Of a DNA stretch of 64,000 bases, positions 1-61,103 are shown one piece after another. Under the pieces are notes generated by a model. The model was not told the origin of the DNA. It saw only the letters and a list, made by a program, of their open reading frames with translations, and searched no databases. Positions within the stretch are counted from its first letter, which is position 1. The number at the start of each line of letters is the position of its first letter. Position numbers and translations under genes: made by a program. The DNA comes from Blasia pusilla (lineage: Eukaryota), in contig CM114271.1 of NCBI GenBank assembly GCA_050084515.1, positions 5,394,001-5,458,000 of the forward strand, in the 5' to 3' direction.

Positions 1-143
1 CCCTAAACTAGCCGTCGCGCCGGCGGCGGCGGTCGCCATCATAGTCACCATCAACGCTCAAGCGTCCGCCATCAACACTCCATCATCGCCGTCCGTCGTC
101 GGCGATTGCCGCCGCCTAGCGCCGCTCAGAGCCGTGTTCAGCC
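1..143 (+). mobile_element. Left part of an older, interrupted copy of the gypsy element's 5' leader
   Basis: 1-55 resembles 1208-1264 (CCTAAAC.AGCCG..CGCCGGCGGCGG..GTCGCCATCATAGTCACC). The same leader sequence resumes at 10381. Confidence 0.65.
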
Positions 144-664
144 TATCACGACTGTTAGGATAGATCGGTGGGATCTAGCAGAGCGTCTTCATAAGTAGTG
201 GAGGACAGGCCCAAGAGGTCGAGAATGATCTGTTGAGGCCCCGGGAAACCTGAGAGAGCAGGTTTCCCCTTTGTTTCGGCTCATTTAGAGCCATATAGAG
301 AAACTTGCTATTTCGCGTAAGTTTCCATGTTGGGGATAGTTGACTTTCTATTTTTGGTAAGTGGCCCTTGACCTCCTACATCAGGTCAAGAGCCAAGGAG
401 GTGACTTGGGAGCATAGGTTACTATGGAGAGAGCTTGGAAGAGGGGAGGGGTATACCTCAAGGAGAGAGAGCTTGAGAACTCATTCTCTCTTTGTTGAAC
501 CTCTTGGCATGAGGTGACAGAGTTATGGTCCCTTGCCTTGTGAGTGTAACCCAAGCCTCTCATTAGGAGAGTGGGTTTGGTTTGACATGAGAGAGAGAGA
601 GAGAGTGCACATCTTTGAGAGCTATGGTGTGAGATGGTGTAGAGAGAGATTGGATCTTACTTTA
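144..664 (+). repeat. Terminal direct repeat A1
   Basis: Aligns to 9749-10253 with roughly 20-25 substitutions by eye plus small indels. Identity ends after GGATCTTACTTTA. Confidence 0.95.
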
Positions 665-1242
665 CAAAGAGAGAATGAGAGAGTGAGAGAGCTTCATGGG
701 GGAGCTCGCTGGTCACTCGCTGTTTTTGCAGGTTGGGGACCGTATTCCTCGTTCAACGGCTCATGGGAGTGCTCACGGGAGCAAGGGCTGCTTCGATTGT
801 TCTTTGCATTTGCCGATTTTTTGTGTGGAAGAGTGGCGCACGGAAGCGCTGCCCAATTTTTGATAGGGATTGAGTATGGGGGCGGGTTGCCCCATGCCGG
901 TGCTCTCGGGAGCACCATGTAGCTTGCTGATTTATATTTTTATAGGTTTTACATTTTTGTTGGGAGAAATCAGCGTGGAAGCGCTGCCAAATTTTATGTA
1001 GGAGAAAGAGACATTGGGATTTACAACAATCCCTGTCAGTTTTTACTGAAATGTTTGATTATAAATATTTTTTGATGCTGTTGTAGATCGTGAAACTAGG
1101 CACGTTGTGCAACAAATAGTGCGCAATTTGGAGTTGCGAGAAAAAAGTTATGGTCAATCTTGCAAAATTGCTATTGCTAGGCGATTTTTAGGGTTAAATT
1201 GTTCAAATCCTAAACCAGCCGCTACGCCGGCGGCGGCCGTCG

Positions 1243-1339
1243 CCATCATAGTCACCGTCAACGATCCATTTTCAACGGTCAACCGTCACCATCATAGTCA
1301 CCGTCAACGATCCATTTTCAACGGTCAACCGTCACCATC
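1243..1339 (+). repeat. 46-bp tandem duplication in the element leader
   Basis: CCATCATAGTCACCGTCAACGATCCATTTTCAACGGTCAACCGTCA occurs at 1243 and 1289. Confidence 0.9.
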
Positions 1340-2208
1340 AATGGTCAACCTTCAGTTGTCCACCGTTTGGTTGCCATTGCCGCCATTACGGAGTGGAGGG
1401 TCTTCCATGACGTTCGTTGATTCTCTAACTTGCGTCGCCAGTACGTACTTTGTTTTGGCCGCCACCGTCATCGCAGTTTCATCATCAACCAGTGATGGCA
1501 GATGACCTTTGGTTATGGTGTTTGAGTTTTGATTTCATGCTGCTATGTTGTGATTGGTAGCCGCTCGACGACGATTGAGTATCGTGCCGTGACGCTCGTA
1601 GCCGCAACGCACCGCCGATTGCCGCGCCGTGCCGCTTGTGGCCGCACCGCACCTTCTCGATCGCAGAGCCGCACCGTCATTGTGGAGCAGAGTGTGGGTT
1701 TATTGTTGATTGAGAAGGGTATGCCGCCGAGTGCCGCATCCCACCATCGAGGGTCGTGCCGTTTGTAGCCGTTCCGTGCTGCCTACAACGCCGCACCGTT
1801 CCGCTGGGACCGCTCTGTCTATCGAGGAGTTTTGAGCAGCGTCACTACGGGAGGAGTATGACTTTCTGATTGGAGGAGTTGTCTCCACGACCGAGTTGGG
1901 GTCGAGATTTGCAATTGCTGAGGAGCGACATCGACATGTGTTCAGGTTACCCATTATGGTCCTTTACCTTGCACGTGTGAGGGAATCTGGGATTTGGGTA
2001 GTTTATTTGGGGATATTGGGTGTGTAGATGCTGAGAGCATCATTTATGTATGTGGTTTAGGGGACATAGACCTGTGTGGGATGTCTGGAATTGAGGGTAG
2101 GTTGTCGATGAGATGATAGCCTGGTCAATTTGCCGCACCACCCCGCGTATTGCCGCACGTTACACGTCTCGGGGAGGGAGAGTGTAGATCGAGTGCCGTA
2201 TGTTTGGG

Positions 2209-3720
2209 ATGAGTGATTGAGGGATTACTCATGAGGTTCAAAGTGATCAGGTGAGAGGGGCACGAGGGTCATCACAGAGTCCGTTCAGGACTTTGAGAGG
2301 CGAGGTGGTGAACCCAAGAGTAGCTCTAGAGGTTTTACGCGGAGTGGTGCGAGGTTCCGAGGGTCTCCACGTGAGGGACCATCTCGAACTCCTTCTGTGT
2401 CATCGTCAGATGAGGGGGAGGGTGTAGAGGAGTTTGTGAGCACATCGCCATACATTGTGAGTGGTCCTACTAGTTGGGCGTAGGAGATGGACGACCGGGG
2501 TAGAGTACCGCGTAGGTTTTCAGATGCAGTAGGCACGATTGAGTTGCACGATTTCATAGTAGAGTTTAGGAGTTGGTGCGACTCCCAGTGGGCCAGGAAC
2601 TCTAGAGAGTTGAACCCGTTTACAACATGGAATGGTATATTCCAGCATTTAGACGGGGCGCCCATTGACGATTACCATGAGTTCTCCCAGAGATATGCAC
2701 GTGAGATCGAGGCGTGGAGGCTCTACTATGACCTACATTATGTGTCATGGACGGAACCGTTCCCAGTTGAGGAGGAGGAGTTAGGAGAGGCTACTTCCTC
2801 TTCCACTAGTGACATTTTAGGAGGGGTCACTTGCACGGGAGCAATTGTACCGTCTAGTCGAGTTCATCCCAGGTTCAACCCTGTGGTTGAGTTCTTTGCT
2901 GAGTTGAGGGCGAGCTACCAGGGGATACGGACGGAGAAGTTGCGGAGCATCCACGACTTCCAGAGGCGCCCGGGTGAGAGTTTGCGTGAGGCTTACAATC
3001 GCTTGCGCCGGTTGATCAACATCACTCAGGGGTGACAGAGGCTCAGGCTATCCAATCATGGTACGCGATGCTGGACCGGACTCTGCGAGACACGGGTGCG
3101 GGAGGGGGTGCTTCTTATGAACACCTCCCCTACGTTGAGAGATGTTTTTAGGACCGCCAAGAACATTGAACCCAACTTGGCGGAGGAGAGCGTAGCCACC
3201 ATGGGTTCTGGGCGAGAGCAGTCACAATTATTTGCACCACCTGTGCAGCAACGTGGACTCCGAGATAGATCGATTGTGGCACCACGAGCTCAGGGAGGAT
3301 ACCAGGAGGCCGTGCCACAGAGACCTGCGCCTTCATGTGTGGCTCAACTGCAGCCGTCTAGTATTACTTGTTGGTCATGTGGTGGAGCCCATCATCAGCG
3401 TGATTGCCCTCGTCAGGGTCATGGACGTGTGCCTTAGCATGGAGGAGGAGATGGTGCTGCACCAGGAGGTTATCAGTGTGACTATTGTGAAAGGTTATGG
3501 TCATACACGCGCTAGGTGTTTCGGTTTACATCCTGAGTTACGTCCGGACCGAGGGCCAGAGAGGGCACCAGAGCGATTAGCCGGTCCGGGTGGGCTAGAG
3601 ATCGTGCACCATGTGGTCCCATTGGGGGACGAGGAGCTGGAGTTGCCCGACAGGGCGGTGGAGCTGCCAGTGGAGGAGGTAGAGTACCACAACCTAGACG
3701 CGGCAGAGACGCGGACGTAA
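2209..3720 (+). pseudogene. gag, frameshifted, with two CCHC-type zinc knuckles
   Basis: Gag-like FQRRPGESLREAYNRLRRLI. Knuckle CWSCGGAHHQRDC at 3369-3407 and frameshifted CDYC..GYGHTRARCFGLHPE at about 3477-3535. The start is approximate. Confidence 0.8.
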
Positions 3721-4419
3721 AGGCCGGGATGGTCGCCGATCTGGCAGCAGCTACAGGAGCAGATTGCCGCTATGGCATTGAGGTTACCCGATGCCGGATC
3801 CGTGGCATCGACATCATATGGAGCAGCCAGAGATCTGGAGGATCCTGGTTGGATGTGCGGGGTTGCCCAAATGGAGGCCGCCGCAGTTGTGACACGTGGA
3901 GCAGCCGCAGAGTTGGATCCACAGCGAGGGGAAGCCAGAAAACAGACTAGGCTTCCTCAGTCTTTCACGTTGTCCGAAGCAATGAGGACCCCATCGATGG
4001 GTCCTCATCAAAGTTCCTGGAGAGTTGGTGATGTTGTTGGTGTGCAGGCACGTAGGGCGTTGGGAGGAGCGAGTGCGACGACTCCTATTGTTGATGCTCA
4101 GGAGGGGCATGTGTCGAGCACGTTGTTGGGGGCGGCCACCGTTGTGTACCACACTCCTTTATTTTCTGCTTCCGATGTTATAAGGTTGGGGGTAGGCTCG
4201 CCGAGCCTTTTCGGCTAGCCGCTTCGCTATGTGAGCGCAGAGTTGGAGTTCCTGCATCACGTTCAGAGGTGATTGCAGAGGAGGTGATGGACGTGCCCTT
4301 GGAGCGGATGCTCGGACCGTCCACGTCAGATTCATGGCAGGCTGCGGCTGCTAGGATGGCAAAGATGTCCGCTAGACCCGCGATAGACCATGCCATGGCT
4401 TCTCCTGGTGTTGTGTTGC

Positions 4420-4800
4420 TGGATAACCGAAGAGAGGTCTTCCAGTTGGTGAGTCTTGGAGGTAGAGCTTTTAGTCCGCAGTGCGTCTTGTTGGATTCGA
4501 GAGCGCAACCCCTGATGTTGGGGAAAGCGTCATTCAGAGGATTGGGCTTGACGAGAGCCGATGTGGAGCCTTGTCCATTCCGGATACATACATCCTTGGG
4601 TGGAGCGAGTACCACATAGTATATCACCCGACAGGAGGTCGTGGTGAGGATTCGCCTTGGACATCCTACAGATGAGTCCGTGGTGCGCGCCAAGGCGATA
4701 GTGATTGATGTAGAGTCCTACGACGTCTTGGTTGGTGGAGCTGTGTTATACCCGATGGGTTTTTCCCTGGATTATTGGGAGGAGTCAGCATCCTACAGAC
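4420..4800 (+). pseudogene. Retroviral-type aspartic protease
   Basis: VLLDSRAQ, a D-S-G motif with G>R (D at 4494), and the downstream YDVLVGG motif. One in-frame TAG at 4617. Confidence 0.8.
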
Positions 4801-5207
4801 CAAGATGGCAGTCAGGTGATGGGCGCCTTAGCTCATTACCCGTTCGATTCACAGGTGCAGTGATCGAGCAACGGCCAGGAAAGATGGCGACCTTAGCAGC
4901 ATTTAGCAGTGCCATCACTTGGCCTAGTGATTTGATTGAGGGACATGTGCATGCAAAGGATACTCCCGTTCCTGACATTTCTATAGAGAGGAGTGTTATG
5001 GTAGCTGCATCATTCCGTGGAGGAGAGGTGCCATTGTGGGGCTCGACTGAGGAGCTTCGACAATTGGCAGATGAGCACGTGCAGACCGCGTGGAGCGAGG
5101 CGTTTGCACCGCAGCGTGACGGGTCTGAGGAACCCAAGGTAGCAAGGAGTGCTACGATGACACCCTTGGATACCACACCCATTATGTGGTGTACCCCGGA
5201 GGAGGAT

Positions 5208-6135
5208 ATTCGAGTGTTAGATCTCTTTGGAGGGATTAGCACCGAGTTAGTTGTTGTTTTGCAGGCATGAGTGCGAGTACAGCAATACCTGTATGTGGAG
5301 AGTGATGATGTTGTGAGGCGCATCTCACTACGATATGTGGTGCAGTTACGCCTACGTTTTCCCGACTTATTGTCTACGTCCGCAGTACAGGGGTACCAGA
5401 ATACCCTACCGAGGGATATTTCGTTGTTGGGGGCGCAGGACTTAGAGCGGGTAGGGACCATTGATTTGGTCATTGCCGGTTGGCCATGTCAGGGCCAATT
5501 GAGTGCTGGACGAGGCAGCGGGTTGGCTGACACTCGGTCCAGGTTATTTTGGGAGATGTTGAGGGTCTTACGGTAGTTACAGGAGCACCAGTCTCGTTCT
5601 CCAGCCTATATTCTGGAGAATGTGCCGATCTTAGGAGACTCCAGGTCACGGGTGGTGACGAGTGCTCATCAGGTGCGTTCTTGGATCAGCCCAGCAGTGT
5701 TCTTGGATGCAGCGAGTATAGGTTCTAGAGCCCATCGCCCGCGTCTATGGTGGACCAACTTGGTGCCCCATGCGGTGTTATGGAGGGTGTATGCGAGAGT
5801 GGAGCGCCCCTCCCATTTTTATTGGATTTCATTCTGGATCCAGGTCGTCGATCACAGGCAGTGAGGCACGATGATCGACCACCGTTGACTGTGGTCAACA
5901 GGGTAGGCAGGCCGCGGGCAGCCTTGCCCACGTTTGTTAGTTTTCCCGCTTCCTATGCATACAAGAAGGCTGGTTTTGGCTTGGTTTGGGATGACCAGGT
6001 TCAGCGGTTGGTGGAGCCCAACGCCGACGAGAGAGAGCGAGCGATGGGATTTACCATAAGAGTGACGGCAATACCATCAATGTCAGAGGCATCACGACGC
6101 CATGTCTTGGGTCAGGGGATGGACATGAACTGCAG
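5208..6135 (+). pseudogene. C5 cytosine DNA methyltransferase domain (DNMT3-like, non-permuted) inside pol
   Basis: Motif I RVLDLFGGI, II YLYVE, III DI, IV IDLVIAGWPCQG (PC at 5484-5489), V SRLFWEMLRVL, VI YILENV (5616-5624), VIII AHRPRLWWTNL, IX ERERAMGF, X RRHVLGQGMD. Stops at 5268 and 5574, frameshift near 5820. Confidence 0.93.
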
Positions 6136-6462
6136 CGTCGTATGAGATCGGGACAGATCACAGTGGTTGTGTTGGTGAGCCCCATGCCAACTGAGACGGT
6201 GGAGGCACTGGCTGGGGGCGAGACCCGAGGAGATCTACGCACCGGGGGAGATCAGGAGAGACACCCTTGGACTTCTTGGGATGTTTTGTAGGTACGCAAG
6301 GAGATGATTGCCACAACATTGAGCGTGGTTTCGGGCACTGCACGTGGAGGAGATCAGAGTTTGCAGTTGGCTGCAGGAGAGCGGCCGAGTGTTTTTGTCC
6401 GAGACAGGGTTGCACCATAGCAACCACCGATACCCGCACCGGAGAGTCCGACCGTAGTCACG

Positions 6463-7880
6463 ATGGAGACTTGGGAGCCAGATATGGGCCCTAAGTTGAC
6501 AGGAGGAGAGCGGCGCCGAATACATCAGTTCCTCAAGAGTTATAGGAGCTGCTTTGCATTTAGCATGGAGGATTTGGGTACGCTGAAGGGATCGGGGATC
6601 CGCATTGAGTTGTCGAGTGATACGCCGATCTTCCAACAACCCTACAAGTATAGTGATATGGAGAGGGCTCTGATTCAGAGTAGGAGCCAGGACTTGGTAG
6701 GAGCTCGACTACTGGAGATGTCGCATGGGGAGTATGCATCTGCCATTGTCATGCTCGCCAAGAAGGATGTGCATGGCAACTGGACGGATAGGCGGATGTG
6801 TGGGGATTACCGACCTATCAATCGGCAGACAAAGTCCGATAGGTATGCCATGCCCACCCCTGAGGAGATATTTGATGCGATTGGTCACGCAAAGATCTTC
6901 AGTTCATTGGATTTGGGAGCCGGATACCATCAGCTGCCTATCAGATTGGAGGACAGGCAAAAGACGGCATTTTGGGGCATCGATCCTCACGGGAAGGATT
7001 GTTTGTACCAGTGGCGGTTCGTACCATTTGGGTTAAAGAACGCCCCAGTTGAGTTTCAGATGGTCATGGATAGGATCTTGGCTGGTCTGGATTTTTCTAG
7101 GTGTTATATTGATGACATTGTAGTCTTTAGCGCCACGGTTGAGGAGCATGAGCGACATCTAGAGGAGGTGTTTCAACGATTGCAATTACATGGGCTGAAG
7201 CTACATCCAAGCAAGTGCAAGTTCTTCTACGACCAGATTGAGTATTTGGATCATACGATATACCCAGGGGGCCTTGGTGTTCAGGAGACGAAGGTAGAGG
7301 CTATCCCACGCATTCCACGCCCTACAGATGTGAGCCGTGTTCGCGCATTCATGGGATTGGAGAACTTGTATCGGCGATACGTCAAGGGATTGAGTTCGAT
7401 TGCAAAGCCTCTGACCTTGCTGACCAAGGTGGATCACGAGTGACACTGGGGGGATGAGCAGGAGCGAGAATTTCAGTTGCTCAAGGACAGGTTGACGTCC
7501 GTGCCCATCTTGAGGAGACCGATCAAGGGGCATCCTTTCCAGATGCACACAGATTGGAGCACGTTGGGGCTTGGAGCGGTGCTCACCCAACATGATGATG
7601 AGGGTAGAGAGTTCATGGTGGCTTACGCTAGCCGCTCGAACAACACTCTAGAGGCAAAGTACATCTCATATGAGGGTGAAGTGCATTTCAGGTGTTACTT
7701 ATTCGGCAACCCTTTTACCATCATCACTGATCATCAACCAATGAAGTGGTTGATGGAGTCCGACAAGCTTACAAGAAAGCTTGCGAGATGGGCTCTGTTG
7801 TTGCAGGAGTATGATTTTCAGGTGGTACATAGACTGGGGACGCTCAACCAGGATGAGATGGGTTGGTCGTAACCCATGCC
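6463..7880 (+). pseudogene. Reverse transcriptase and RNase H
   Basis: RMCGDYRPIN, LDLGAGYHQL, PFGLKNAP, YIDD (7105-7116). RNase H motifs HTDWS, GAVLTQ, VAYASR and TDH. In-frame TGA at 7441. Confidence 0.97.
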
Positions 7881-8229
7881 CAGTCCGAGATGCGATTGGA
7901 GCTCGATGGCATGGAGAGAGTGATGAGGAGTCGGTGCCAGGATGGCATCGCCACCCATTTAGGCATGTTGGCTATGGAGAGCCAGAGTGTGGAGACCGAT
8001 GGCGCAGGTTAGTGAGAGTCCTGGATCTCGAGGCCGGTGAGGACACAACAAGTGGCCGAGATATTCATGATGATGGAGTAGTCTTGGAGTACCTTTTTTG
8101 GGCGTTCCAGCACCTTGTGGATGCTAGAGAGCGGGATCGGATCCTCAAAGGGACAAACGGTTCCGTTGGGAGGGGACACATGTTTTGAGGGTTTGGGAGG
8201 ATGGCATAGTACACGTGAGCGGCATCCTT

Positions 8230-9330
8230 CGAGAGAGCACAGTAGTCATGGAGTTGGGTCACTTTGGGGTGAAGCGGACGATGTGCCTTGCTCAAGATTC
8301 AGATTGGTGGCAAGGTTTGCAGATTGACGTTCAACAGTTTGTTTCCAGGTGCATGGTGTGTGATCGGGTCCGAGCATCATTCAATGCTCCGACTCCACAG
8401 TTGCATCCATTACCGCTCATGGGCTTAGGGTATAGATGGAGTTTGGATTTTGCAGGACCTTTGCCTTTGACGGAGCATCACAGTCGTTATGTGTTGGTGA
8501 TGATCGAGCACTTCTCGAAGTGGATCGAGTTGGTTGCATTGCCTGACAAAGTGAGTGAGGGAGTAGCTTATGCCTTCCTTGACAAAGTGCTGAGTCATAT
8601 GGCGCATTGGCTGAGATGTTGACAGACCAAGGTACCGAGTTTTGTGGTGAGTTCCAAGCCTTGTGTGATTAGGCGCTGATCGACCACCGCACGACTTCGC
8701 GAGATCATCCCGAGGCGGATGGATTAGCGGATAGAGTTGTGCAGACAATGAAGAGGGATTTATGCAAGTATAGCTTGCAGAGAGGTCACCTAGGAGATTG
8801 GGACCTCCAGTTGCCATGGTTGGCGATGGGATACAGATTCAAAAGGCATGCATCCTTAGCGTCTTTTTCACCGTACTTGCTACTTTATGGCCGAGAGCCA
8901 GATTTACCTACGGCCATTCATCGAGATGCTGGTGAGGTGCTGGACCTTGATGACCCAGATAGATGCGAGCATGTTCTCAGAGGGCTGAGTTGTTTCGGAG
9001 AGTGATGCCCATGGCGTTCGAGAACTTGGCGATTGCGCAACATCGAGATACGTTGAGGAATGCGACTATTCGGGATGGTGGTTATCGACCAACTATCTGG
9101 AGGTTTCATCAAGGAGATTATGTCTACTTGCAGCAAACGGCACCAACGACGTTGGATGTAACTGCATGGCGCACTATCCTGAGAGTGCGTGACGTTTTGC
9201 CATCCGGTGTTCTCTTGCTGGAGGGACGCGATGGTATGGTATGGAAGGACCATGTGCGTAATTATGCGCCATATCACCTTCCTAACATTGATGGTACAGT
9301 AGATTCAAGCTTAGCAGTAGTTCCTACGGC
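8230..9330 (+). pseudogene. DDE integrase
   Basis: GHFG...CMVC zinc motif, WSLDFAGPLP, TDQGTEF (frameshifted), HPEADGLADR (third catalytic E appears as D), FSPYLLLYGREP. Confidence 0.93.
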
Positions 9331-9334
9331 CACG

Positions 9335-9439
9335 ATGCTAGTCTGTGATGGATGTTCGAGAGGTTGGCATATGGCATGTTTGACGCCACCTCTCACTAGG
9401 GTTCTTCGGGGACGATGGATGTGTCCCAGATGTACATAG
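9335..9439 (+). pseudogene. PHD finger at the integrase C-terminus (first CxxC missing)
   Basis: MLVCDGCSRGWHMACLTPPLTRVLRGRWMCPRC matches the C-terminal two-thirds of the C4HC3 PHD consensus. Confidence 0.85.
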
Positions 9440-9609
9440 AGGAGATACTAGGTAGGTTTTTCCAAATTTTTCTGTGACATGGATGATAGGAAGAAAACTA
9501 ACGATGGGGCCACATGAACACCCGACCTTTATGCTCTTTCCTAGAGATGTATGTTGTGGTAGGTAGTTATAGATGGCTATCTGGAGTTAAAGGGACCTAA
9601 CCACCAGCT

Positions 9610-9619
9610 AGGGGGGCGA
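9610..9619 (+). other. Polypurine tract (PPT)
   Basis: AGGGGGGCGA immediately before repeat B1. The same motif occurs at 46330. Confidence 0.7.
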
Positions 9620-9746
9620 TTAGAGATATTTTGATACTTCTCGCCTCTGTGTATGGATGCCATGAGTTAGCATGGGATCGTGTGTGTTTGTGTGTGTGTT
9701 CGATAACAACGATGTATATTTTGTAGCGATGTGTATGCGCATGATA
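9620..9746 (+). repeat. Direct repeat B1 (127 bp)
   Basis: Near-identical to 10254-10380 and ends GCGCATGATA. Confidence 0.95.
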
Positions 9747-9748
9747 AC

Positions 9749-10380
9749 TATCACAACTGTTAGGATAGATCGGTGGGATCTAGCAGAGCGTCTTCATAAG
9801 TAGTGGAGGACAGGCCCAAGAGGTCGAGAATGACTTGTTGAGGCCGTGGGAAACCTGAGAGAGCAAGTATCCCCTTCGTTTCGGCTCATTTGGAGCCATA
9901 TAGAGAAACTTACTATTTCACGTAAGTTTCCATGTTAGGGATAGTTGACTTTTTATTTTTGGTAAGTGGCCCTTGACCTCCTACATCAGGTCAAGAGCCA
10001 AGGAGGTGACTTGGGAGCATAGGTTACTATGGAGAGAGCTTGGAAGAGGGGAGGGGTATACCTCAAAGAGAGAGAGCTTGAGAACTCATTCTCTCTTTGT
10101 TGAACCTCTTGGCATGAGGCGACGAAATTATGGTCCCTTGCCTTGTGAGTGTAACCCAAGCCTCTCATTAGGAGAGTGGGTTTGGTTTGATATGAGAGAG
10201 AGAGTGCACACCTTTGAGAGCTATGATGTAGAGAGAGATTGGATCTTACTTTATTAGAGATATTTTGGTACTTCTCGCCTCTGTGTATGGATGCCATGAG
10301 TTAGCTTGGGATCGTGTGTGTTTGTGTGTGTGTTCGATGACAGCGATGTATATTGTGTAGCGATGTGTATGCGCATGACA
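9749..10380 (+). repeat. A2 (9749-10253) plus B2 (10254-10380), the right end of the element
   Basis: A2 matches 144-664 and B2 matches 9620-9746. Ends GCGCATGACA. Confidence 0.95.
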
Positions 10381-10825
10381 AGCTGTTGTTTGCCGTTGGT
10401 TGTCATTGCCGCCATTACGGAGTGGATGGTCTTCTATGACGACCGTTGATTCTCTAACTTGAGCCGCCATCATGTAATTTTTTTTGGTCGCCGCCGTCAT
10501 CGAAGTTTTGTCATCAACTAGTGATAGCACGTGACCTCGGGTTGATGGTGTTTGAGTTTTCATTTCATTCTACTATGTTGTGATTGGTAGCCGCTCGACA
10601 ATGATTGTGTAGCGTGCCGTGATGCTTGTAGCCACAACGTGCCGCCGATTGCCGCATCATGCCGCTTATGGCCGCACCACACCATCTCGATCGCGGAACC
10701 ACTCCTTCACTAAGGTGTAGAGCATGTGTATTGCTGATTGATGAGGAGGGTATGCCGCGGAGTGCCGCATCCCATTATCAAGTGTCGTGCGGTTTTGTAG
10801 CCGTTCCATGCCGCTAGTGCCACAC
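10381..10825 (+). mobile_element. Right part of the interrupted older leader copy of the same gypsy family
   Basis: Colinear, diverged match to about 1355-1795 (GCCGCCATTACGGAGTGGA...GTTGTGATTGGTAGCCGCTCGAC...GTGCCGCATCCCA). Confidence 0.85.
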
Positions 10826-10854
10826 ATCATGCATATATAATGACTACCCTTCAA

Positions 10855-11806
10855 GAACAGGAGTTGAGTTATTTTAAAGAAGCTGCAAGTAAAGTTGAAT
10901 GGATTGAAGCTATGGAGGAAGAGCTTGCTACATTAAGAGATCAATAGACATGTGAGCTGGTTGATGTTCCTTCCGGTAAGGAAGCTATTGGTTGCAAATG
11001 GGTTTATAAAATCAAACGCAATCAAGATGATATAATTAATAGATATAAAGCGATATTGGTGGCTAAGGGCTATGCACAATAATATGGCATCGATTATGAG
11101 GAAACATTTAGCCCTGTTGCAAAGATGGCGACTACGAGATCAATGATTGTAGTTGTAGTAAGTAAGAAGTGGAGATTACATCACATGGACGTCAAGAATG
11201 CCTTCTTGAATGGAGACCTATATGAGGAGGTATATATGACTTAAACACTTGGATACGAGCATCCCAAGTTTCCATTTCGCGTATGCAGATTGAAGAAAGC
11301 TCTATACGGGCTCAAACAAGCTCCAATAGCTTGGTATGGCAAGATTACATACGTCCTACAAGAGTTAGGTTTTAGGATGTGTGATTCTGACTCCTCGTTA
11401 TATGTCTTGAGAGGACAAGATCATACGATTATCATTATGTTGTATGTTGACAATCTCTTGATTACTAGGAGTAATGAAGAAATGGTACAATAAGTCAAGA
11501 TGAAGTTACAAGCAGAATTTGATATGAAGGACTTGGGAGAACTCAAGTACTTCCTTGGTGTTGAATTTATCAAGGTAGTAGCATCAAGCTTGCTAATAAT
11601 CTTGTGTTTCATGCTCGTACAAAGCATGTTGATGTGCACTATCATTTTATCAAAGAGAAAGTGCTTGCCGGAGAAATTGATCTTGTGTATATAGGTACAA
11701 ATTAGCAAATTGTTGATATCTTTACAAAGGCATTGTCTAGAGATAAGTTTGAGATGTTTAGAAATGATTTAGGCGTTAGAGATATCGATATGAGTTTGAG
11801 GGGAAG
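10855..11806 (+). mobile_element. Ty1/copia RT-RNase H remnant with internal deletion, ending in a PPT
   Basis: [70 protein letters not shown], then a jump to HARTKHVDVHYHFIKE and DIFTKAL. PPT GAGGGGAAG at about 11798-11806 is followed by LTR-like TATTGAA. Confidence 0.92.
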
Positions 11807-14800
11807 TATTGAAGATTGAGTTACAATCAAGCTCATGAAATACTTGAACTGCTACATTTGGTACTCACACAAAGTAGGGAAGCTTAATCTTGGTTAGTCA
11901 GTTAAGCGCGATTATCTTAACTAGGGTTAGTTAATCATAATTAGTCTAACTCGAGACTATGGTTAAGGTTAGGATTAGGATTGCTTGTACATACCCTATA
12001 TAATTAAGAAGGGGAACAACCTCACTTATTCTCTCATTGCAAATTTTGTTCTCCATGGTGGTATATGAGTGTGAGAGCCGTTTCCTACCAGCTATGCTTC
12101 TTTAGCAATTTTCCACAACTCATTCTTAAGGTGATAGACTGAACAATCTGGGTCATGGCGTCAAATGTAGAGAAAGAGAAATGCCTAAAAGTTCATTACG
12201 TCCAAGGTGAGTGAGGATTCCTTACGTAGTACGAAGGCAATGAAGGTCGAGTGTCAAACAAACATAGAATGCAACGTGCAATTTTCTAAGTAGAGAAACT
12301 GGTAGGATCTTTCATATTTCATGAATAAATCTCCACAGGGCTTTCTATAAATAATTTCAAGGTTGGAGTGTGGAAAATATCCTAGTTAGATCTTTTAGAT
12401 ATGTATCGAAAACAAATTTTTCATTGAGGCAAGCCACGTACAGAGAGAAGAAGGAAAGGGAAAGGGATGAGGCAGTTGAATGGAAGGAAGTGATTGCAAT
12501 TGCGCAAATTTTGCATTGTATAGAAGAAACTAGCGCCAACTTGGATGTGAGTTTAGCCCGGTGACGATGTTATGCAATCTACCACTAGATAGTCCCGATG
12601 GAATCTCAACTTACCTTTAAGACCATGGTTGTAGCTCAATAGACTTTTACACACCTTCACTTCCAATTGCACCCTTTGCCACCAACTATGAATCTGCTCA
12701 TAGGTCACCACTCCAATTCCCAACCACCGATTGAAGAGGAAAGACCGTAATGAAAAAAGAACGCAAAAAAGTTTGTGAAATTGAATTTGAGCAAGTCTAA
12801 AAGTGTCCACCAAAAAGTCTAACAATATGCAGAAAAGAATGTGAACAAAATTTTTTGCAATTTAGAACACCACGACCCAATTGCAACCAATTGAGAGTAA
12901 GGTAAAGAAACGAATGCTTTCATGAGTTTGCATTTACAAAACGAGTTCGGGTTTACATAATCAGAAAAATGAGCTAGAGGAAATTCAGAAATGACCTATT
13001 CATGAATTCGACATGGAAAGGGAAGCTCAATGGAACACGTAAGTCCCAACAAATGAGCTCCAAATCTCAGCCAAATCTCAAAAACATGATCATCAGTCTT
13101 GAGCAAGTTTCAAATAAAAATCAGCATGCACCAAACTTAGGTAACATGAGTGTGATAGCATTCATACAAGAGAATTTTGAAGTGGATATTTAGTTCCATC
13201 ACTTGCAACATAATCTAGGACCTATGCGCATTATATCACAACATTGTTCTGGTACAAGTTGAGCAGATGCATTTACCATGTCCGTTGACATCCAACGGTT
13301 CACCATCGACCACATAGGCTCTGAAGGACACCTAGATAGGGTCTTCAACTAGAGAATATAAGAAGGGATGTAGCTACCAAAAAGAATAGAAACAAAAGGA
13401 TAAAAAAATAGAGGCACGAGATCAAAGAGATTAAACTGAAGGCCACTTGTATGCGCCAAAAATATCACTTTATACATTGTTATTGCACATTGGGCTCCCA
13501 TAAGAAAATGTTTACATCAACATTGGTGCTACATTACATGGTTTCTATGATTAGGAAGAATTAAATTTCACTTCGGACATTGTGGCATTGGATTGTACGA
13601 TGAGCTCTCATGAAACAAGGTCAACATGGAAACTTTGAAAAGAAATCTTCATGCAACACATATTCTCATCTTGTGCAAGACAAGAATGCAACTACACAAT
13701 GTCACCCTTTACTTTGCTACCAGTATTGAGTAGCCCTAATACGTGATACCAATTTTTTTCCTTTTTACTACAATGGATGGCCATCTACTTGCGAGGAAAA
13801 AAAAGGTTGGATGAATCACTCATGAGACAATGAATTCTGTATGTTAAAGCCCGTCCCCATGGAGTCACGGCGGGAGTCCCTCTCCGACGGTCCTACCAGT
13901 TGCCAGGTAGGATCACAAACGGTTTCGATGTTTGATTATAAAAGAATTTAAAAGACAACCGGCTACCGTTCTTTGATTTTCCAAGGATCGTCCCTAGTAT
14001 TTCTTCGCCGTAAATTTCACGGCGCGGAAGGACAAGCGACCCGCCTATGGTCCGTGGATTGATAGTCGTCGATTAAGCATCGGAAGGATCCTACGACCAT
14101 GGAATTGCTCCATGGGGACCTACTCTTAGTGTTGAAGACGAAGCAGTTCTCTTTCGCCAATTTTGTTGTTAGTGTGTACCCTAGCTTTGGCTCTTTTGAG
14201 CTCACTTGAAAGCTTTTTTTTATCTTATTCTAGATTGCAGATAAATTTTGTGGTACAAGTTTGATTGCTAAGTCAAAAGAAGTGACGATAACATAGTCAT
14301 AAGGGCCATAAAGAGACATATCGCAAGTCGAGAGATTATTGTTGTAGCATACATACTCAAAAACCTACTTGGTTTGCATCCCTACTAGTACTAAATTTCC
14401 TGCGTGATTCATTGGGCTACATTTGCAAATGCAGCCCTTTTAATAAGTGCGAACTTCCGTGCACCTACCTAAGGACTCCATTCCACACAATGGCAAAATG
14501 TCAAAGAAGAGGATTTGGTTTCTTTCCGACAGTAGAGACTTAAAGGTTCAAATAGAGGATTTGGTTTCTTTTCTTTAGTGGAGATACAAATAGTATTTTT
14601 GGAATGGATAATCCTAGTAGTTGGTATGGATAGCTTCAGTCGTAGGAGCATGATAAACAAAATTTGAGAAAATCTACTCCAACCGTCAAATTCTGTATAA
14701 ATATAATGGTACAAATTTTCTTTGAAAAGAACTTGTGGGGCGACAATGCAAGCATTTATGCCCATGTTAACGCACTTAAGTGAATGTAGATAGGATCCCA

Positions 14801-15331
14801 TGCTCATTCAACATGAAGATTTACATTTTCAGATATTAACTATGGTAACTCAAATTGATAAGACTCAAATTCACGTGTATTATTTTGACTTCTTGGGCTC
14901 GTTTGTTACCATATCACTTATGCTTACTTCATAATTTGAAGTTAACCCTTGGAACTTCAAAATTTTAAGATCCACATATTTCATCTATGGTTTTTAGTGA
15001 AGCCATACAAAATAAAATCATGACGTGGTACTTTCTCAATTAAAATGTTCACATTTTGGAAAAACTTATCTTATAACTCAACTTGCCCACCATTCATTGT
15101 GACACTGACACATTGCTACAAATATAAGAGTCTAGTAACTAAACTTTGTGTTTGGCCAAATGAATAAACTGATTTATGTGAAGGCCATGGGACTTGAAAT
15201 TAAAACACTAGACACCTAGCAGAAAAGGGGCGTCCAAAGAAGCTAAATGTCATAAACACTCTACTTTAGCAAGCACTTACCATTGTAGAATTCTACATGT
15301 TTCTACCATACTATCAGCGCCCTCAGAAGGG

Positions 15332-16012
15332 TTCGAGAAAGTCACTTGCAGCTTTCTTGAAGATAGCAGCTTGCCTCATTGTTAAGTTCATTTGAACTAC
15401 AATATGTACATTGCCAGCTTCTTGGGTGTCAAAAGTTTCCTGGTTCTGACTCCTAACTCTGATGAGCAACATGACTAGTTGACATTGGGGCAATGAGGCA
15501 ACAAGCTTTTCAGTCGATCCTCCATTCAGTTGGTGAAAGCATACTTGCTTGCTCAATTTGGAGTAAAAGTTTCATTCAGATTGCTTAGCTTTCACAATGC
15601 TTAATGAAAGGTAATGCTTATCGACACCACGACAAGAAACTAATACCCATGTCCTCATTGAGGTATCTTCGAGAAAGTCTTCGAGAAAGTCACTTGCAGC
15701 TTTCTTGAAGATAGCAGCTTGCCTCATTGTTAAGTTCATTTGAACTACAATATGTACATTGCCAGCTTCTTGGGTGTCAAAACTTTCCTGGTTCTGACTC
15801 CTAACTCTGATGAGCAACATGACTAGTTGACATTGAGGCAATGAGGCAACAAGCTTTTCAGTCGATCCTCCATTCAGTTGGTGAAAGCATACTTGCTTGC
15901 TCAATTTGGAGTAAAAGTTTCATTCAGATTGCTTAGCTTTCACAATGCTTAATGAAAGGTAATGCTTATCGACACCACGACAAGAAACTAATACCCATGT
16001 CCTCATTGAGGT
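15332..16012. repeat. 333-bp near-perfect tandem duplication
   Basis: 15332-15664 matches 15680-16012 with about 2 substitutions. A 15-bp filler lies between the copies. Confidence 0.95.
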
Positions 16013-43859: not shown

Positions 43860-45125
43860 TCAAGACAAATGGAACAGGGGAGAATGTATGTCTGCTAAGG
43901 AGCATGGACAGATTGGATGCACTAGTGCAAGAAACTCATCCTCATGCAAAGGTACGGGGCTATTCTCATCAAGATATTCCGGAAAAGGCGCTTCAGGATC
44001 CACGTTGCTTCTCTTTGCGAAGTGAAAGTTTGCGAATTCCATCCCCGATTTGTAGTTTGAAATGCGTTCTTTGAGTTGCCACAACAGAAATCGATCATTT
44101 GGCACACGCATGGTAAAAGGTTCACCGAAATAGGATAGGAACTTTCCAGTTCTATCAGGTAACATATGCGAAAGTCGCAGAGTCCGTACAGCACTCCTAA
44201 CCTTCTGTGCAGGAATCTCTTCCGCCTTCAAATCCTCGGTCACATCTCTAAGCTTATCTTTGGAACTATAGATTTTTATGATTCTATGGTCTACTACCCC
44301 GGCAATTTGAAGCCATCGTGACGGAGGGAGACGCATACGCGATTTAAGTTCCACGATCACATCGGCGACAGTGCAATCCCCGGACATCCTCAAATTGTAG
44401 TTCCTAGCCCGCACAGAGCTAAAACTGCGGAACGAAATTCTCAAATCCTTAATTTTCCCATCCAGGGTTGTACTTCTTACGAGATCTACAAGAAGCGTTG
44501 GCTTTCTGATAGCCAACTCCTCAAAACCGGGAGCGTTCACAATTTGCTTGAGATTACAACCAATAAACTCCTTGCACCTTTCAAACAGAGAAGCATCATA
44601 AAGCACAGCATGCTCCAGGATATTGAGCGAATTTTCAACCGTAAGCATGTCCCCTAGAACAGGGCTGCAAATTCTGGCCAATTGTGGTACCTCATACTTG
44701 TGGCAGGCAGCGAGCACCTCCAATCCAAACTTCTCTATGTCCTCACGGCTCAAACTTCCCGTATACAGCAGCCTCAAGAAAGCTCTGAATGCTCCCGTCG
44801 TCATGTCCTCCACCTTCACCACAGACGTAGTCTGCTCCAGCATCTTGTTCTGGAACATAGCCCTAAACACAGGCGAGACGCTCGCCAATATGCACCTGTG
44901 CGCCGGCGTCCTATCGAGCTCCGACTCGAACGTTATGTCCGAATGCAGGCCGTCCTCTAACATCTGCTCCACGGTCGATCGAAAATGCTCTCTATCCAGC
45001 TGCTCCACAGCCAGATCCGCCTGCTTCCGTTTCAATCCTCTCTCCATTTTCCCCTCTTGTTGCTGCCAGCCTCCTTGCGGCCTCTCCTCCTCCCTCCTCC
45101 ACTCCCAATTACTCCACGACTTCAT
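43860..45125 (-). CDS. BTB/POZ-BACK-like protein fused to a USP7/UBP12-type C-terminal ubiquitin-like region, 421 aa, intronless
   Basis: BTB motifs SDITF...PAHRCILASVSPVFRAMF...FRAFLRLLYTG...ACHKYEV. C-terminal TVADVIVELK, HRIIKIY, LKAEEIP, FGEPF, PEYL resemble the UBP12/13 C-terminus as I recall it. Confidence 0.88.
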   Translation of the reverse strand: MKSWSNWEWRREEERPQGGWQQQEGKMERGLKRKQADLAVEQLDREHFRSTVEQMLEDGLHSDITFESELDRTPAHRCILASVSPVFRAMFQNKMLEQTTSVVKVEDMTTGAFRAFLRLLYTGSLSREDIEKFGLEVLAACHKYEVPQLARICSPVLGDMLTVENSLNILEHAVLYDASLFERCKEFIGCNLKQIVNAPGFEELAIRKPTLLVDLVRSTTLDGKIKDLRISFRSFSSVRARNYNLRMSGDCTVADVIVELKSRMRLPPSRWLQIAGVVDHRIIKIYSSKDKLRDVTEDLKAEEIPAQKVRSAVRTLRLSHMLPDRTGKFLSYFGEPFTMRVPNDRFLLWQLKERISNYKSGMEFANFHFAKRSNVDPEAPFPEYLDENSPVPLHEDEFLALVHPICPCSLADIHSPLFHLS

Positions 45126-46329
45126 AAAATTCCGCTTCTCCTCCCCCTTCTAACCTCCTCAATTCCCTCCCCCTCTCAACCACCTTCCTTCCTTCCCTCC
45201 CCTACCAATTCTCCTCCTCCTCCTCCTCCTTCTCTCCGTTCCTTAAAGAATTGAACGCGCACCACCTCTCTTCGCTGTTCCTCCACACGAATTCCACTGT
45301 CATTTCAGAGCCGCTGCGATCGAAGAAACCAAAAGATCGAGAAAGCGTGAATACTACGAGAGCCTCTCCTCTTGCTTCCTTTCGTCTCCTCTCTTCGGCC
45401 CTTTCTGTTGGCCCCGGCCCGGCCGGGCCCGGCCCGGCCCGACTCTTGTGTCTGTCCGTCTGTCGATTCCCACCATCCAGCCTCATCTAAAGATCTTAAA
45501 AGGTCCAGAATTAGCGTCTCTTGGGACGGGGACCCGTGCCTCGGCGCGGGCCCAGATCCGACGGCCCACGGCGCTCGATGCAGCATCGGATGCAGGTTGG
45601 TGGGGTCGGTCGGCACTGAGACCTGGTATGGTAGGTCGAAAGTTGACCCGCCACGGGTTGTCCTCGAAGAAACGCACGCAGGCTCAGGATTTACACTCGC
45701 CCGAAACCGGCTGACTGGCCGGTAATTTCTCACGATGAAAGTTCCCGGGGACCGATCTGTTGGTGTCGTCGTAAGTACGCTGCCCCACCGAGCATCCCCA
45801 CCTTGTTGTTGCCTTTATCGACGGACGATCTCCCTCTCCGTCCGACGGAGGTCCGTTTATTGAGGAAGATCGTCCCTCTCCGTCGACTCCTGTGTCATTT
45901 ACATCATACGTATCCGCGCTCCCCGCGTACATACGACAAAAATATCAGTGGACTCCGTCCACCCCTTGCCGGACGCTGTTCGTGTGATATATGGACGGGT
46001 ACTAGGATTCCTACCGGATCGTCTCACACTTTAGGACCGAGTTCTCACGGAGGAGAAAGCATTGTTCGACAAAGATTTTACTCTAACGATGCCCGGATGA
46101 AAATTCCCCCGTAAGGAACTGCCCCACGACGAAATCTTGCTCGTTGACGTCATCACGACTGCCCGGTGGCAGGGTGAAAGTTTACGGGATGTTTTCCATG
46201 TAGGAGGGCGACTCAAAGGCCTCAATTGATTTGCAAGGAGGGTTTAGGGATTCTTGATTTGAATGCTACCTAAAATATTCGCCACATGCGAATCACGAAT
46301 CCAATCATCATACACGTGGCTAACTAGTT

Positions 46330-60300: not shown

Positions 60301-60761
60301 GCGTTCTCTACTTTCTTCCCCTCTCCACGCGCATTTTCTAGTTCTGTTTTTACCCGAGCGACGCTTATTCCGCACTCCTTCATGCAATCTCCGATTTGAG
60401 TGTCTTCAAGAAGAGCTAGAATCAATTGATCAACGGAAAGATGCGTGTCACCTCTCTTCTTCTGAAACGCTTGCGCCTTCCTGATGCACTTAATCAGGGA
60501 GGAATTCGCGGGTACTTCATCCGGAGCGGGAGTCTGCGACGGGATTTTCTTCAGTGCCTGATTGAAGGCCCTTTCCAGAGAACTCACAGCTCCATCTCCT
60601 CTCGCAGCAGTGACGGATTGACTGAACAATCCATCCGGATCCTGGAGCAAGGCGAGTGCAAGATGCACAGGCGTGTACTGAGCATGTCCGCCGCTGATCG
60701 CGATTTCTTGACCCGCAGCAAGCGCTTCGTTGGTCTTATGCGTAAATCGCTCGGGATTCAT
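57383..60761 (-). CDS. HSP101: Cytosolic ClpB/HSP101 disaggregase, about 913 aa
   Basis: Exons 60761-60073, 59917-59602, 59284-58058, 57892-57383. [14 protein letters not shown] start, two Walker A motifs ([16 protein letters not shown]), a coiled-coil middle domain, YGARPL and an acidic tail. Confidence 0.98.
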
Positions 60762-61103
60762 ATCTTCTCTCGAAACAAACTGCCTTCAAAATCGCCTACG
60801 ATCACTATCCGATTACAAACTCTCAATCAACGCAACACTACTACTTCAACTCCCGAATCGGCTCTCCTCTGGAACGATAGAATTCCGCAGCAATGTCGAT
60901 TGTACAATGGTCCACTTCCTCCGTCTTCCGCGTCGACGCTTAGTAATCCCTTGCGTGTAATCTGCGATCGGAATCAAATGAGTTGAATGAATGACAGGAG
61001 TGGCAGCGATTGCCGCTATAAGAAGAAGAGACCAGCGCTCGACCCTCAAAGGCAGAGAAGAGTTTGAGAAGAGTCGCGACTGCACTCGCAAATTCTGTAC
61101 AAG

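Follow-up and report, generated by a model that had tools for sequence, protein, structure and literature searches.

A DNMT3-like methyltransferase domain in the polyprotein of a gypsy-type retrotransposon lineage of Blasia pusilla and other bryophytes

Retrotransposons with their own cytosine methyltransferase

Cytosine methylation is the main weapon of the host against transposons, and a transposon that carries its own de novo methyltransferase therefore turns the roles round. Such elements have been described until now from dinoflagellates and one charophyte alga (PMC5890265). In the alga, Klebsormidium nitens, de Mendoza et al. described KnitGypsy-Dnmt3 in 2018, a gypsy-type element whose polyprotein includes a DNMT3-like domain that is not permuted; its catalytic residues are conserved, and Ka/Ks between copies is < 0.2 (PMC5890265). 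In yeast the Klebsormidium domain produced no methylation, an outcome that the authors term inconclusive (PMC5890265). SymbioDIRS-Dnmt3 and SymbioLINE-Dnmt of Symbiodinium are likewise retrotransposons that carry a C5 methyltransferase under purifying selection, and two SymbioDIRS-Dnmt3 domains carried out de novo CG methylation in yeast (PMC5890265). However, these elements belong to another class (tyrosine recombinase DIRS, or LINE) and to another host kingdom, and according to the authors their methyltransferases were acquired independently (PMC5890265).

An element of the KnitGypsy-Dnmt3 kind, with a DNMT3-like domain that is set in a gypsy-type polyprotein and common to the copies of its family, lies in the window, the whole 64,000-nucleotide stretch of Blasia pusilla contig CM114271.1 that was analysed. 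The likeness includes the terminal repeats, which are DIRS-like and arranged as A-coding-B-A-B in KnitGypsy-Dnmt3 (Fig. 4c legend, PMC5890265) and follow the same scheme here, and the Ka/Ks values, which in distant pairs of our family are 0.16–0.21. In contrast, the named hosts of our family are land plants (liverworts and peat mosses) together with Closterium, and no protein named as Klebsormidium was among the domain-search matches, many of which are nameless. The available text of the KnitGypsy-Dnmt3 paper gives no domain order for the algal element, does not mention a stop following the methyltransferase and has no occurrence of the term "PHD" (PMC5890265), whereas the window element has both features. 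The kind itself dates in the literature from 2018 (PMC5890265), and public databases already contain many of its bryophyte copies as "hypothetical proteins"; we found no printed account of a bryophyte lineage of methyltransferase-bearing gypsy elements, copies of which may be shown in the supplementary figures of PMC5890265 and PMC12344493.

The region 4269–6145, where the initial annotation saw a gypsy retrotransposon with its own DNMT3-like enzyme inside Pol, is very probably the protease and methyltransferase part of an old, inactivated copy of a gypsy lineage in which the DNMT3-like methyltransferase is a fixed and selected module.

The element and its methyltransferase domain

The broken gypsy-type element occupies about 143–10381 of the window, with approximate ends and all features on the plus strand. 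Its parts run in the order gag, protease, linker, methyltransferase, conserved in-frame stop, reverse transcriptase (RT), RNase H, integrase and PHD finger, so that RT, RNase H and integrase follow the protease in the order that marks Ty3/gypsy elements. The terminal repeats are of the split A-coding-B-A-B type: the 5′ repeat A1 (143–664) is 93% identical to its 3′ copy A2 (9748–10253), and the short repeat B1 (9619–9747), preceded by the purine run AGGGGGG, is 96% identical to 10253–10378 of B2 (10253–10381), the probable 3′ end of the element. Of 34 loci measuring 9 kb or longer, three (L043, L065 and L071) show the same arrangement. In L047 only A1 and A2 are paired, and in another six loci a B-like pair lies 3′ of the PHD finger. 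A leader segment (1363–1779) has a second copy, 83% identical, at 10393–10811. The window holds a further repeat pair at 2–76 and 1209–1283, and it gave no match in Rfam.

The gag region (2484–4212) includes a CCHC knuckle (CWSCGGAHHQRDC); two stops (3033 and 3435) interrupt it, and its frame changes near 3440–3499. It is followed by the aspartic protease region (4269–4860, stop at 4617), where the active-site motif at 4488–4508 reads LLDSRAQ in the window copy and DSG in relatives. Pfam recognises no gag family and no protease family in the window copy, and the protease family PF13650 is present in the relatives P0293, P0295–P0297 and P0328. The linker between protease and methyltransferase (4861–5183) is the least constrained part, with a dN/dS of 0.83. 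Downstream of the methyltransferase lie the RT (6421–7443; RVT_1, E 2e-30) with YIDD at 7105–7116, RNase H (7444–7872; PF17917, E 2.9e-25) and the integrase (8128–9005), whose H2C2 zinc domain (PF17921, E 8.8e-10) and core (rve, E 9.4e-5, below its cut-off) are spread over two frames. The PHD finger (9329–9433; PF00628, E 1e-9) forms the C-terminal end of the integrase frame and is also carried by relatives; a literature search on PHD-bearing integrases found nothing relevant.

A non-permuted C5 cytosine methyltransferase domain is encoded at 5184–6133, between protease and RT. Motifs I to VIII lie in frame 3n (5184–5807, with stops at 5268 and 5574; 64% identity to the Marchantia protein P0003): motif I (DLFGGIS) at 5220–5240, motif IV with its PC (GWPCQG) at 5478–5495, motif VI with its ENV (ENVP) at 5616–5627 and motif VIII (SRAHRPRLWWTNL) at 5724–5762. 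After a frame break at 5808–5815, motif IX (NADERERAMGF, 6020–6052) and motif X (LGQGMD, 6107–6124) follow in frame 3n+2 (5816–6133; 63% identity to P0003), and a second break near 6132 leaves the copy about 34 letters short of other family copies. The motif numbers are assigned after those of the C5 family. Thus, the motifs are all present in canonical order between protease and RT, just as the initial annotation had them, and its single frame from protease through motif VIII is borne out as well: frame 3n is continuous over 4095–5864, with stops at 4617–4619 (TAG), 5268–5270 (TGA), 5574–5576 (TAG) and 5862–5864 (TGA) and no others. With the stops, the two frame breaks in the domain and further breaks downstream, the window copy is dead, as had been proposed, and it is itself incapable of any of the methylation, read-through or PHD steering considered below. 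The proposal that the domain sits inside Pol holds insofar as the domain is built into a polyprotein, but its place is in the upstream gag-protease-methyltransferase frame, ahead of the conserved stop that precedes RT.

The suggested Pfam search recovered the domain, since the window sequence with its stops read through as X scores 37.5 bits on PF00145 (E 2.5e-9; cut-off 22), and a stop-free relative, L023, scores 49 bits. Closeness to DNMT3 was judged among solved structures only, where the family profile reaches E-values of 5.4e-24 with DNMT3A, about 1e-20 with DNMT3B/C, 4e-8 with bacterial M.HaeIII and 2.6e-4 with DNMT2, with no DNMT1 chain at E <= 0.01; in the window read-through itself, query residues 369–556 align with DNMT3A chains at E 2.1e-9. 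An AlphaFold model of L023 (pLDDT 93.7) gave the same picture in Foldseek: each of the 30 chains listed (ranks 1–47) belongs to DNMT3A/B/C, the lowest E being 6.9e-20 and the TM 0.84 by target length. These sequence and model comparisons support the earlier assignment of a DNMT3-like, non-permuted domain, with DNMT3A/B/C as its best solved relatives in both sequence and fold. The animal enzymes (e.g. 6f57, 6u8p and 8tci) share its motif order, and their AHRxR..W.NL motif VIII aligns. However, identity to them is only about 20%, the element domain is longer than their catalytic domain by about 80 residues (367 versus about 285), and it is set in a retroelement polyprotein with no adjoining PWWP or ADD reader domain found, whereas animal and some plant DNMT3s carry such domains N-terminal of the catalytic domain. 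Pfam recognises no family at 4197–5183 of the window, and in 618–3191 of L023 it has only zf-CCHC. Since protist and algal DNMT3s likewise stand without companion domains (PMC12344493), their absence is not strictly defining. Plant DRM2 is also a DNMT3-derived de novo methyltransferase, but it is circularly permuted, whereas the window domain is colinear with DNMT3A; the family profile matches DRM2 at 1e-11 over profile positions 11–137 only, which correspond to DRM2 residues 225–345. A domain query of a protein atlas returned generic C5 methylase clusters only, one of them mostly Streptophyta.

Relatives, transcription and constraint

The window element is colinear with the Marchantia proteins P0003 and P0007, which run gag-protease-methyltransferase(-RT), and its identity to them is 33–40% in gag (the same range as to P0003 gag), 51–54% from protease to methyltransferase, 60–63% in the C-terminal part of the methyltransferase and 63% in RT. 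In 80 metagenome loci, most of them from a few related records that may go back to a recent common founder, the protease or linker lies just upstream of the domain in 71, RT just downstream in 59 and both in 55, and all seven parts stand in order in 20. The domain is thus not a neighbouring host gene, as the initial annotation had argued from the shared frame. A domain search returned 466 representative clusters at E <= 1e-30, and the 150 matches listed are all family members; named hosts are Marchantia polymorpha, M. paleacea, Riccia sorocarpa, Calypogeia fissa, three Sphagnum species and Closterium. Many copies in the host have the module in common with relatives from liverworts, from peat mosses and from a zygnematophyte alga, and retrotransposons of this kind are common in liverworts and peat mosses. 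No search returned a host DNMT3, DRM, CMT or MET1 sequence, and in a tree of the element domains the window domain groups with Marchantia and Calypogeia copies in a set of seven rows with 100% support.

Within the host, 36,734 and 34,878 contigs from two DNA runs aligned to window positions 1–11000. Their summed depth, which is not a copy number, is 6,787–8,030 and 4,864–6,290 in the methyltransferase bins and 6,103–11,918 and 3,546–7,974 in the gag bins. Host RNA reads whose first mate maps to the minus strand reach a depth of 45–59 and 34–52, against 0.4–5.4 on the plus strand, and only 25 of 6,031 and 6 of 6,118 are at least 99% alike; relatives of the window element are thus transcribed in the host, in the sense direction. 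Among the loci examined no fully intact element was seen: only two of the 38 full-length domain copies are free of stops, and L023 has one extra in-frame stop upstream of its domain. Natural stop-free domains include a region of the Marchantia Mp_4g09160 protein and the L023 frame 3195–4508.

The catalytic Cys and ENV are nearly invariant in 54 family sequences, as are the residues of motifs VIII, IX and X. Pairwise dN/dS estimates blend selection with decay after insertion, and for the domain they fall from 0.90 (48 pairs with dS < 0.1) to 0.21 (34 pairs with dS > 0.5) and to 0.16 in 37 pairs with L023, the low values coming from pairs with a dS of 1.9, near saturation. Over all pairs the median is 0.58 for the domain, 0.45 for integrase and 0.39 for RT, and the domain ratio exceeds the RT ratio in 23 of 27 shared pairs. 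By these sequence comparisons the domain is under constraint between lineages, with ratios of about 0.2 in distant pairs only. The neutral ratio that the initial annotation had named as a sign against a selected module is thus not what distant pairs give (about 0.2), nor do other copies lack the domain.

The in-frame stop and the possible role of the enzyme

An in-frame TAG at 6418–6420, followed by CAA CCA in both the window and L023, separates the gag-protease-methyltransferase frame from that of RT and integrase. A stop occupies the same alignment column in 38 of 39 in-frame loci; of 57 loci, 44 have their stop 51 nt upstream of the RT match, and 39 continue with CAACCC after it. In intact relatives of the window copy, the enzyme would probably be made along with Gag and protease, and RT and integrase would be reached by read-through of this leaky-looking stop. 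The enzyme could carry out de novo methylation of the newly made element DNA or of the insertion site, an idea that has been put forward for the algal and dinoflagellate elements (PMC5890265) and that falls slightly short of an even chance here. More tentatively, the PHD finger might read histone tails and thereby steer integration.

One may argue that the stop is not read through and that RT and integrase come from a spliced or separate RNA, or that the stop was inherited from one dead founder, which we consider improbable though far from negligible. The loci derive largely from a few interrelated metagenome records and may descend from one recent founder, 21 of the 57 stops are TAA and two TGA, and two Marchantia gene models (P0007 and P0009) have a splice across the methyltransferase-RT region. 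On the other hand, P0003 and P0006, also Marchantia gene models, terminate some 70 residues past the domain, and the stop is common to the window, L023 and the main locus family, although their methyltransferase domains are only 60–67% identical. Moreover, the frame is kept beyond it, a conserved ETWEP..GPKLT stands 12–14 codons past the stop with no ATG before, and none of the joints listed from host RNA reads is a splice joint at the stop. A literature search on stop read-through in LTR elements found nothing relevant.

The domain itself can also be read differently. The window copy, riddled with stops and frame breaks, cannot show function by itself and could be seen as a one-off, with a fragment of a host DNMT3 captured by, or through assembly placed beside, a single gypsy copy and having no role in the family. 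This reading is very improbable: Marchantia proteins hold the same domain at the same place, it stands between protease/linker and RT in 55 of 80 independent loci, host DNA contigs and RNA reads cover it as they do the rest of the element, and the window domain belongs to the fully supported set with Marchantia and Calypogeia copies. Capture and assembly chimera are hence both rejected. A kept domain that does not methylate DNA is the less remote alternative, albeit still quite improbable; its substrate might be RNA, as with DNMT2 and as has been proposed for the LINE enzyme of dinoflagellates, or it might be a non-catalytic binding module in the manner of DNMT3L that recruits or blocks host methyltransferases. 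The negative yeast result with the Klebsormidium domain (PMC5890265) fits such a role, as does a constraint weaker than that on RT. However, a purely structural module would not need the nearly invariant GWPCQ Cys, ENV and motif VIII, IX and X residues, which speak against it, and DNMT3A/B/C are far closer than DNMT2 in sequence (5.4e-24 versus 2.6e-4) and in fold.

If the reading of a selected DNA methyltransferase is joined with read-through and PHD steering, an old, still transcribed gypsy lineage would be present in bryophytes as well as in the algae nearest to land plants. Its DNMT3-like enzyme would be translated before a leaky stop, together with Gag and protease, and a PHD finger on its integrase would pick chromatin; the element would thus have a self-contained epigenetic toolkit for writing its own mark in land plants. 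Translation before the stop would provide the enzyme in Gag-like amounts and allow its packing into particles, so that new DNA could be methylated before or at integration. That all these parts hold together is rather unlikely. The gypsy form is widespread and diverse, is transcribed in the host of the window and occurs in model bryophytes, Marchantia polymorpha among them, and the use of the enzyme to the element thus becomes testable in a genetically tractable land plant. In addition, counts of "DNMT3" genes in bryophyte genomes may take in element-borne copies.

A second arrangement is seen in type B relatives from metagenomes (e.g. P0016, 2534 aa), which have a homologous methyltransferase (35–40% identity), RT, integrase and a C-terminal PHD finger. 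In these the methyltransferase lies between RNase H and integrase, whereas in the window type it lies between protease and RT. A single branch of the domain tree separates the two placements, and the occurrence of the domain at two places of the polyprotein in two sister groups suggests that it moved or was taken up more than once.

The methyltransferase domain and its element

The element (window ~143-10381) belongs to a gypsy-type lineage with a DNMT3-fold domain whose catalytic motifs are intact. In the window copy this methyltransferase (MT) domain, 5184-6133, lies between protease and reverse transcriptase (RT). The initial annotation had described a single frame broken only by point stops, and frame 3n is indeed open over window 4095-5864 except for its stops at 4617, 5268 and 5574 and a further one at 5862. 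Motifs IX and X follow in frame 3n+2 (5816-6133), the frame break being located between 5807 and 5816, and a second break at ~6132, where other copies have ~34 more letters, explains the premature stop at 6143-6145.

The proposed DNMT3-like identity is borne out by both profile and structure searches. Read through with X at the stops, the domain matches Pfam DNA_methylase at 37.5 bits (E 2.5e-9), above the curated cut-off of 22, and solved DNMT3A chains align to it over 188 residues (E 2.1e-9), taking in DLFGGI/SLFDGI, the PC motif, ENV, and SRAHRPRLWWTNL versus SAAHRARYFWGNL. Against solved structures, a five-row family profile finds DNMT3A best (5.4e-24), followed by DNMT3C/3B (~1e-20), DRM2 (1e-11), M.HaeIII (4e-8) and DNMT2 (2.6e-4), while DNMT1 chains are absent from its matches at E ≤ 0.01. 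The DRM2 match is confined to motifs I-IV, located at the C-terminal end of DRM2, as expected for a permuted enzyme. A model of the stop-free domain of the relative locus L023 (pLDDT 93.7, pTM 0.91; 54-sequence alignment) retrieves in Foldseek only DNMT3A/B/C among the 30 matches listed (E 6.9e-20, TM 0.78-0.84 by target length, ~20% identity). Across 54 family members the catalytic Cys, ENV and residues in motifs VIII-X hardly vary.

In tblastn with relatives, Marchantia polymorpha proteins run colinear with the window over gag (2508-4212, 33-40% identity), protease, linker and MT N-part (4197-5807, 51-54%), MT C-part (5816-6133, 60-63%) and RT-RNase H (6472-7869, 63%); integrase (8149-8972, 42-49%) and the C-terminal region (8981-9433, 41%) match P0016, a metagenome relative of 2534 aa. 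Pfam recognizes RVT_1, RNase H, an integrase zinc domain and a PHD finger (PF00628, E 1e-9, 9329-9433), the last at the C terminus of the integrase frame. Chromoviruses carry a chromodomain at this end of integrase; the PHD finger is common to relatives with either placement of the MT domain. The protease motif is DSR in the window copy and DSG in relatives. With at least six frame changes in its coding part besides the stops, the window copy is dead, as first proposed, and no fully intact copy was seen among the copies examined. Of 722 listed kinds of place where host DNA contigs differ from the window copy (run X1), 370 have A/T in the copy against G/C in the contigs, which is the pattern expected from methylated-cytosine decay. 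The CpG observed/expected ratio is 0.27 in 618-6809 of L023, a nearly intact relative, 0.75 in the window element (2484-9439) and 0.68 in the remaining window; CpG loss differs strongly between the hosts, or between the histories of the elements.

Distribution, placement and selection

The domain is not a one-off in the window copy. At ≥ 85% likeness, two host DNA runs place 36,734 and 34,878 contigs on window 1-11000, covering all 30 bins; summed contig depth in the MT bins (5139-6239) is 6,787-8,030 and 4,864-6,290, inside the range of gag and RT, although such sums are not copy numbers. The domain is also transcribed in the host: 6,031 and 6,118 reads from two RNA runs spread over the whole element and show a strong strand bias, with MT-bin depths of 45-59 and 34-52 for first mates on the minus strand, which is sense RNA in most stranded libraries, and 0.4-5.4 on the plus strand. 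Reads ≥ 99% alike to the window copy number only 25 and 6, respectively, so the transcripts come from relatives and not from this copy.

Conservation extends between lineages. M. polymorpha has 11 "hypothetical proteins" of 1034-1333 aa (49-66% identity), and further protein matches come from the liverworts M. paleacea, Riccia sorocarpa and Calypogeia fissa, from Sphagnum fallax, S. troendelagicum and S. jensenii, and from Closterium NIES-53/54. From metagenomes, 284 candidate stretches yielded 111 confirmed loci, of which 80 were kept, probably most of them from one plant genus; protease/linker lies directly 5' of the domain in 71, RT directly 3' in 59, both in 55 and neither in 5, and all seven parts stand in order in 20. 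The initial annotation had named family copies lacking the domain as one refutation of its reading; other copies do carry it, among them the named proteins and these 55 loci, and the host contigs cover it. Against 1.84 billion representatives, a profile search gives 15,335 matches at E ≤ 1e-3 (2,218 at E ≤ 1e-10, 466 at E ≤ 1e-30), and one protein cluster joins Sphagnum with metagenome proteins.

Two placements exist, type A between protease and RT, and type B between RNase H and integrase. Among the best 150 representatives, the domain follows RT and/or precedes integrase in 93, follows gag or protease and/or precedes RT in 12, and stands alone in 45. In an unrooted tree of 169 domain rows, left after 42 of 211 were dropped for ≥ 80% identity to a retained row, a single branch divides the two types (SH-aLRT 99), with 30 A and 13 unknown rows facing 103 B and 23 unknown rows. 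The window domain sits in a seven-row set with 100% support, alongside L023, Calypogeia and Marchantia; the Closterium domain is type A. Most metagenome representatives (P0017-P0166) have the RNase H-MT-integrase form, not protease-MT-RT.

A neutral dN/dS of the domain was another refutation named by the initial annotation, and it describes close pairs but not distant ones. Median pairwise dN/dS (Nei-Gojobori, natural copies, stops skipped) is 0.39 for RT (77 pairs, 14 loci), 0.45 for integrase (118, 17), 0.56 for gag (75, 14), 0.58 for MT (698, 38), 0.66 for the PHD region (207, 21), 0.67 for protease (320, 26) and 0.83 for the linker (693, 38). By rising dS, the MT ratio runs 0.90 (dS < 0.1, 48 pairs), 0.63, 0.51, 0.67 and 0.21 (dS > 0.5, 34 pairs); for the 37 pairs that include L023 it is 0.16 (dN 0.31, dS 1.88), and for protease in the same comparison 0.31. 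As the ratio drops with distance, close pairs record neutral post-insertion decay, and distant ones record selection on the lineages. Counting against selection, the MT ratio exceeds that of RT in 23 of 27 shared pairs and lies below that of the linker in only 160 of 227, and the largest dS values approach saturation.

The stop between methyltransferase and reverse transcriptase

An in-frame stop separates MT from RT in the identical alignment column in 38 of 39 in-frame loci, and, going upstream from the RT match, the first stop comes at 51 nt in 44 of 57 loci. Over all 57 this stop is TAG in 34, TAA in 21 and TGA in 2, with CAACCC next in 39. L023 (stop 4509-4511) and the window (stop 6418-6420) share TAG CAA CCA, a context resembling UAG-CAR-YYA, the leaky-stop motif of tobamoviruses. 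Downstream, the frame is unchanged and residues are conserved, with no ATG ahead of them; two gene models of Marchantia, P0003 and P0006, terminate ~70 residues past the MT domain. Judged by this context, the stop looks like programmed read-through, which would put MT in the Gag-protease product. The earlier placement "inside Pol" therefore stands as to position, between protease and RT, but not as to product, since the conserved stop and the gene-model ends assign the domain to an upstream gag-protease-methyltransferase product.

MT would then be translated together with Gag and protease, some ribosomes may read through the stop into RT-integrase-PHD, and the enzyme, by its predicted activity, could carry out de novo methylation of the element's newly made DNA or of its surroundings. 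For such elements, already known as "KnitGypsy-Dnmt3", the 2018 authors suggested escape from foreign-DNA recognition or protection from deaminases as the benefit (PMC5890265). A 2026 preprint (10.64898/2026.05.21.726589) cites the kind as streptophyte "Gypsy-DNMT3", and PMC12344493 mentions it in general terms, as "streptophytes". "Marchantia", "Physcomitrella" and "moss" have 0 occurrences in the 2018 text (PMC5890265), and no description of bryophyte elements of this kind was found in the literature listings and passages covered. The window thus holds a dead, new copy of a known kind. For that kind, the spread across bryophytes, the stop, the PHD finger and the two placements seem not to have been described before.

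Terminal repeats and neighbouring sequence

Repeat A (~505-520 nt; window 143-664 and 9748-10253, 93% identical) and repeat B (126-129 nt; 9619-9747 and 10253-10381, 96% identical), the latter on both sides of the 3' A copy, form a split A-coding-B-A-B pattern that is found again in the metagenome loci L043, L065 and L071. KnitGypsy-Dnmt3 repeats are likewise A-coding-B-A-B according to the Fig. 4c legend of de Mendoza et al. 2018 (PMC5890265). Split repeats are as in DIRS elements, yet the window element has a DDE integrase. Two extra direct repeat pairs, 2-76/1209-1283 (80% identical) and 1363-1779/10393-10811 (83% identical), fit neither a plain LTR nor the split-repeat scheme. Junctions 56->1323 and 9615->10253 in some host contigs show that forms without the blocks between these positions exist. 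A Copia-type fragment (~10815-11700, with an RT-like frame at 11245-11493) abuts the end of repeat segment 10393-10811.

Elsewhere in the window, three stretches look like host genes: one for a ClpB/Hsp101-like ATPase, made up of two long exons (57383-60782, minus strand), one for a BTB protein that includes a USP7_C2-like part (43860-45146, minus), and a frame matching PIN_6 (50219-51466, plus). A ~348-nt unit forms a 99% identical tandem pair at 15327-15974.
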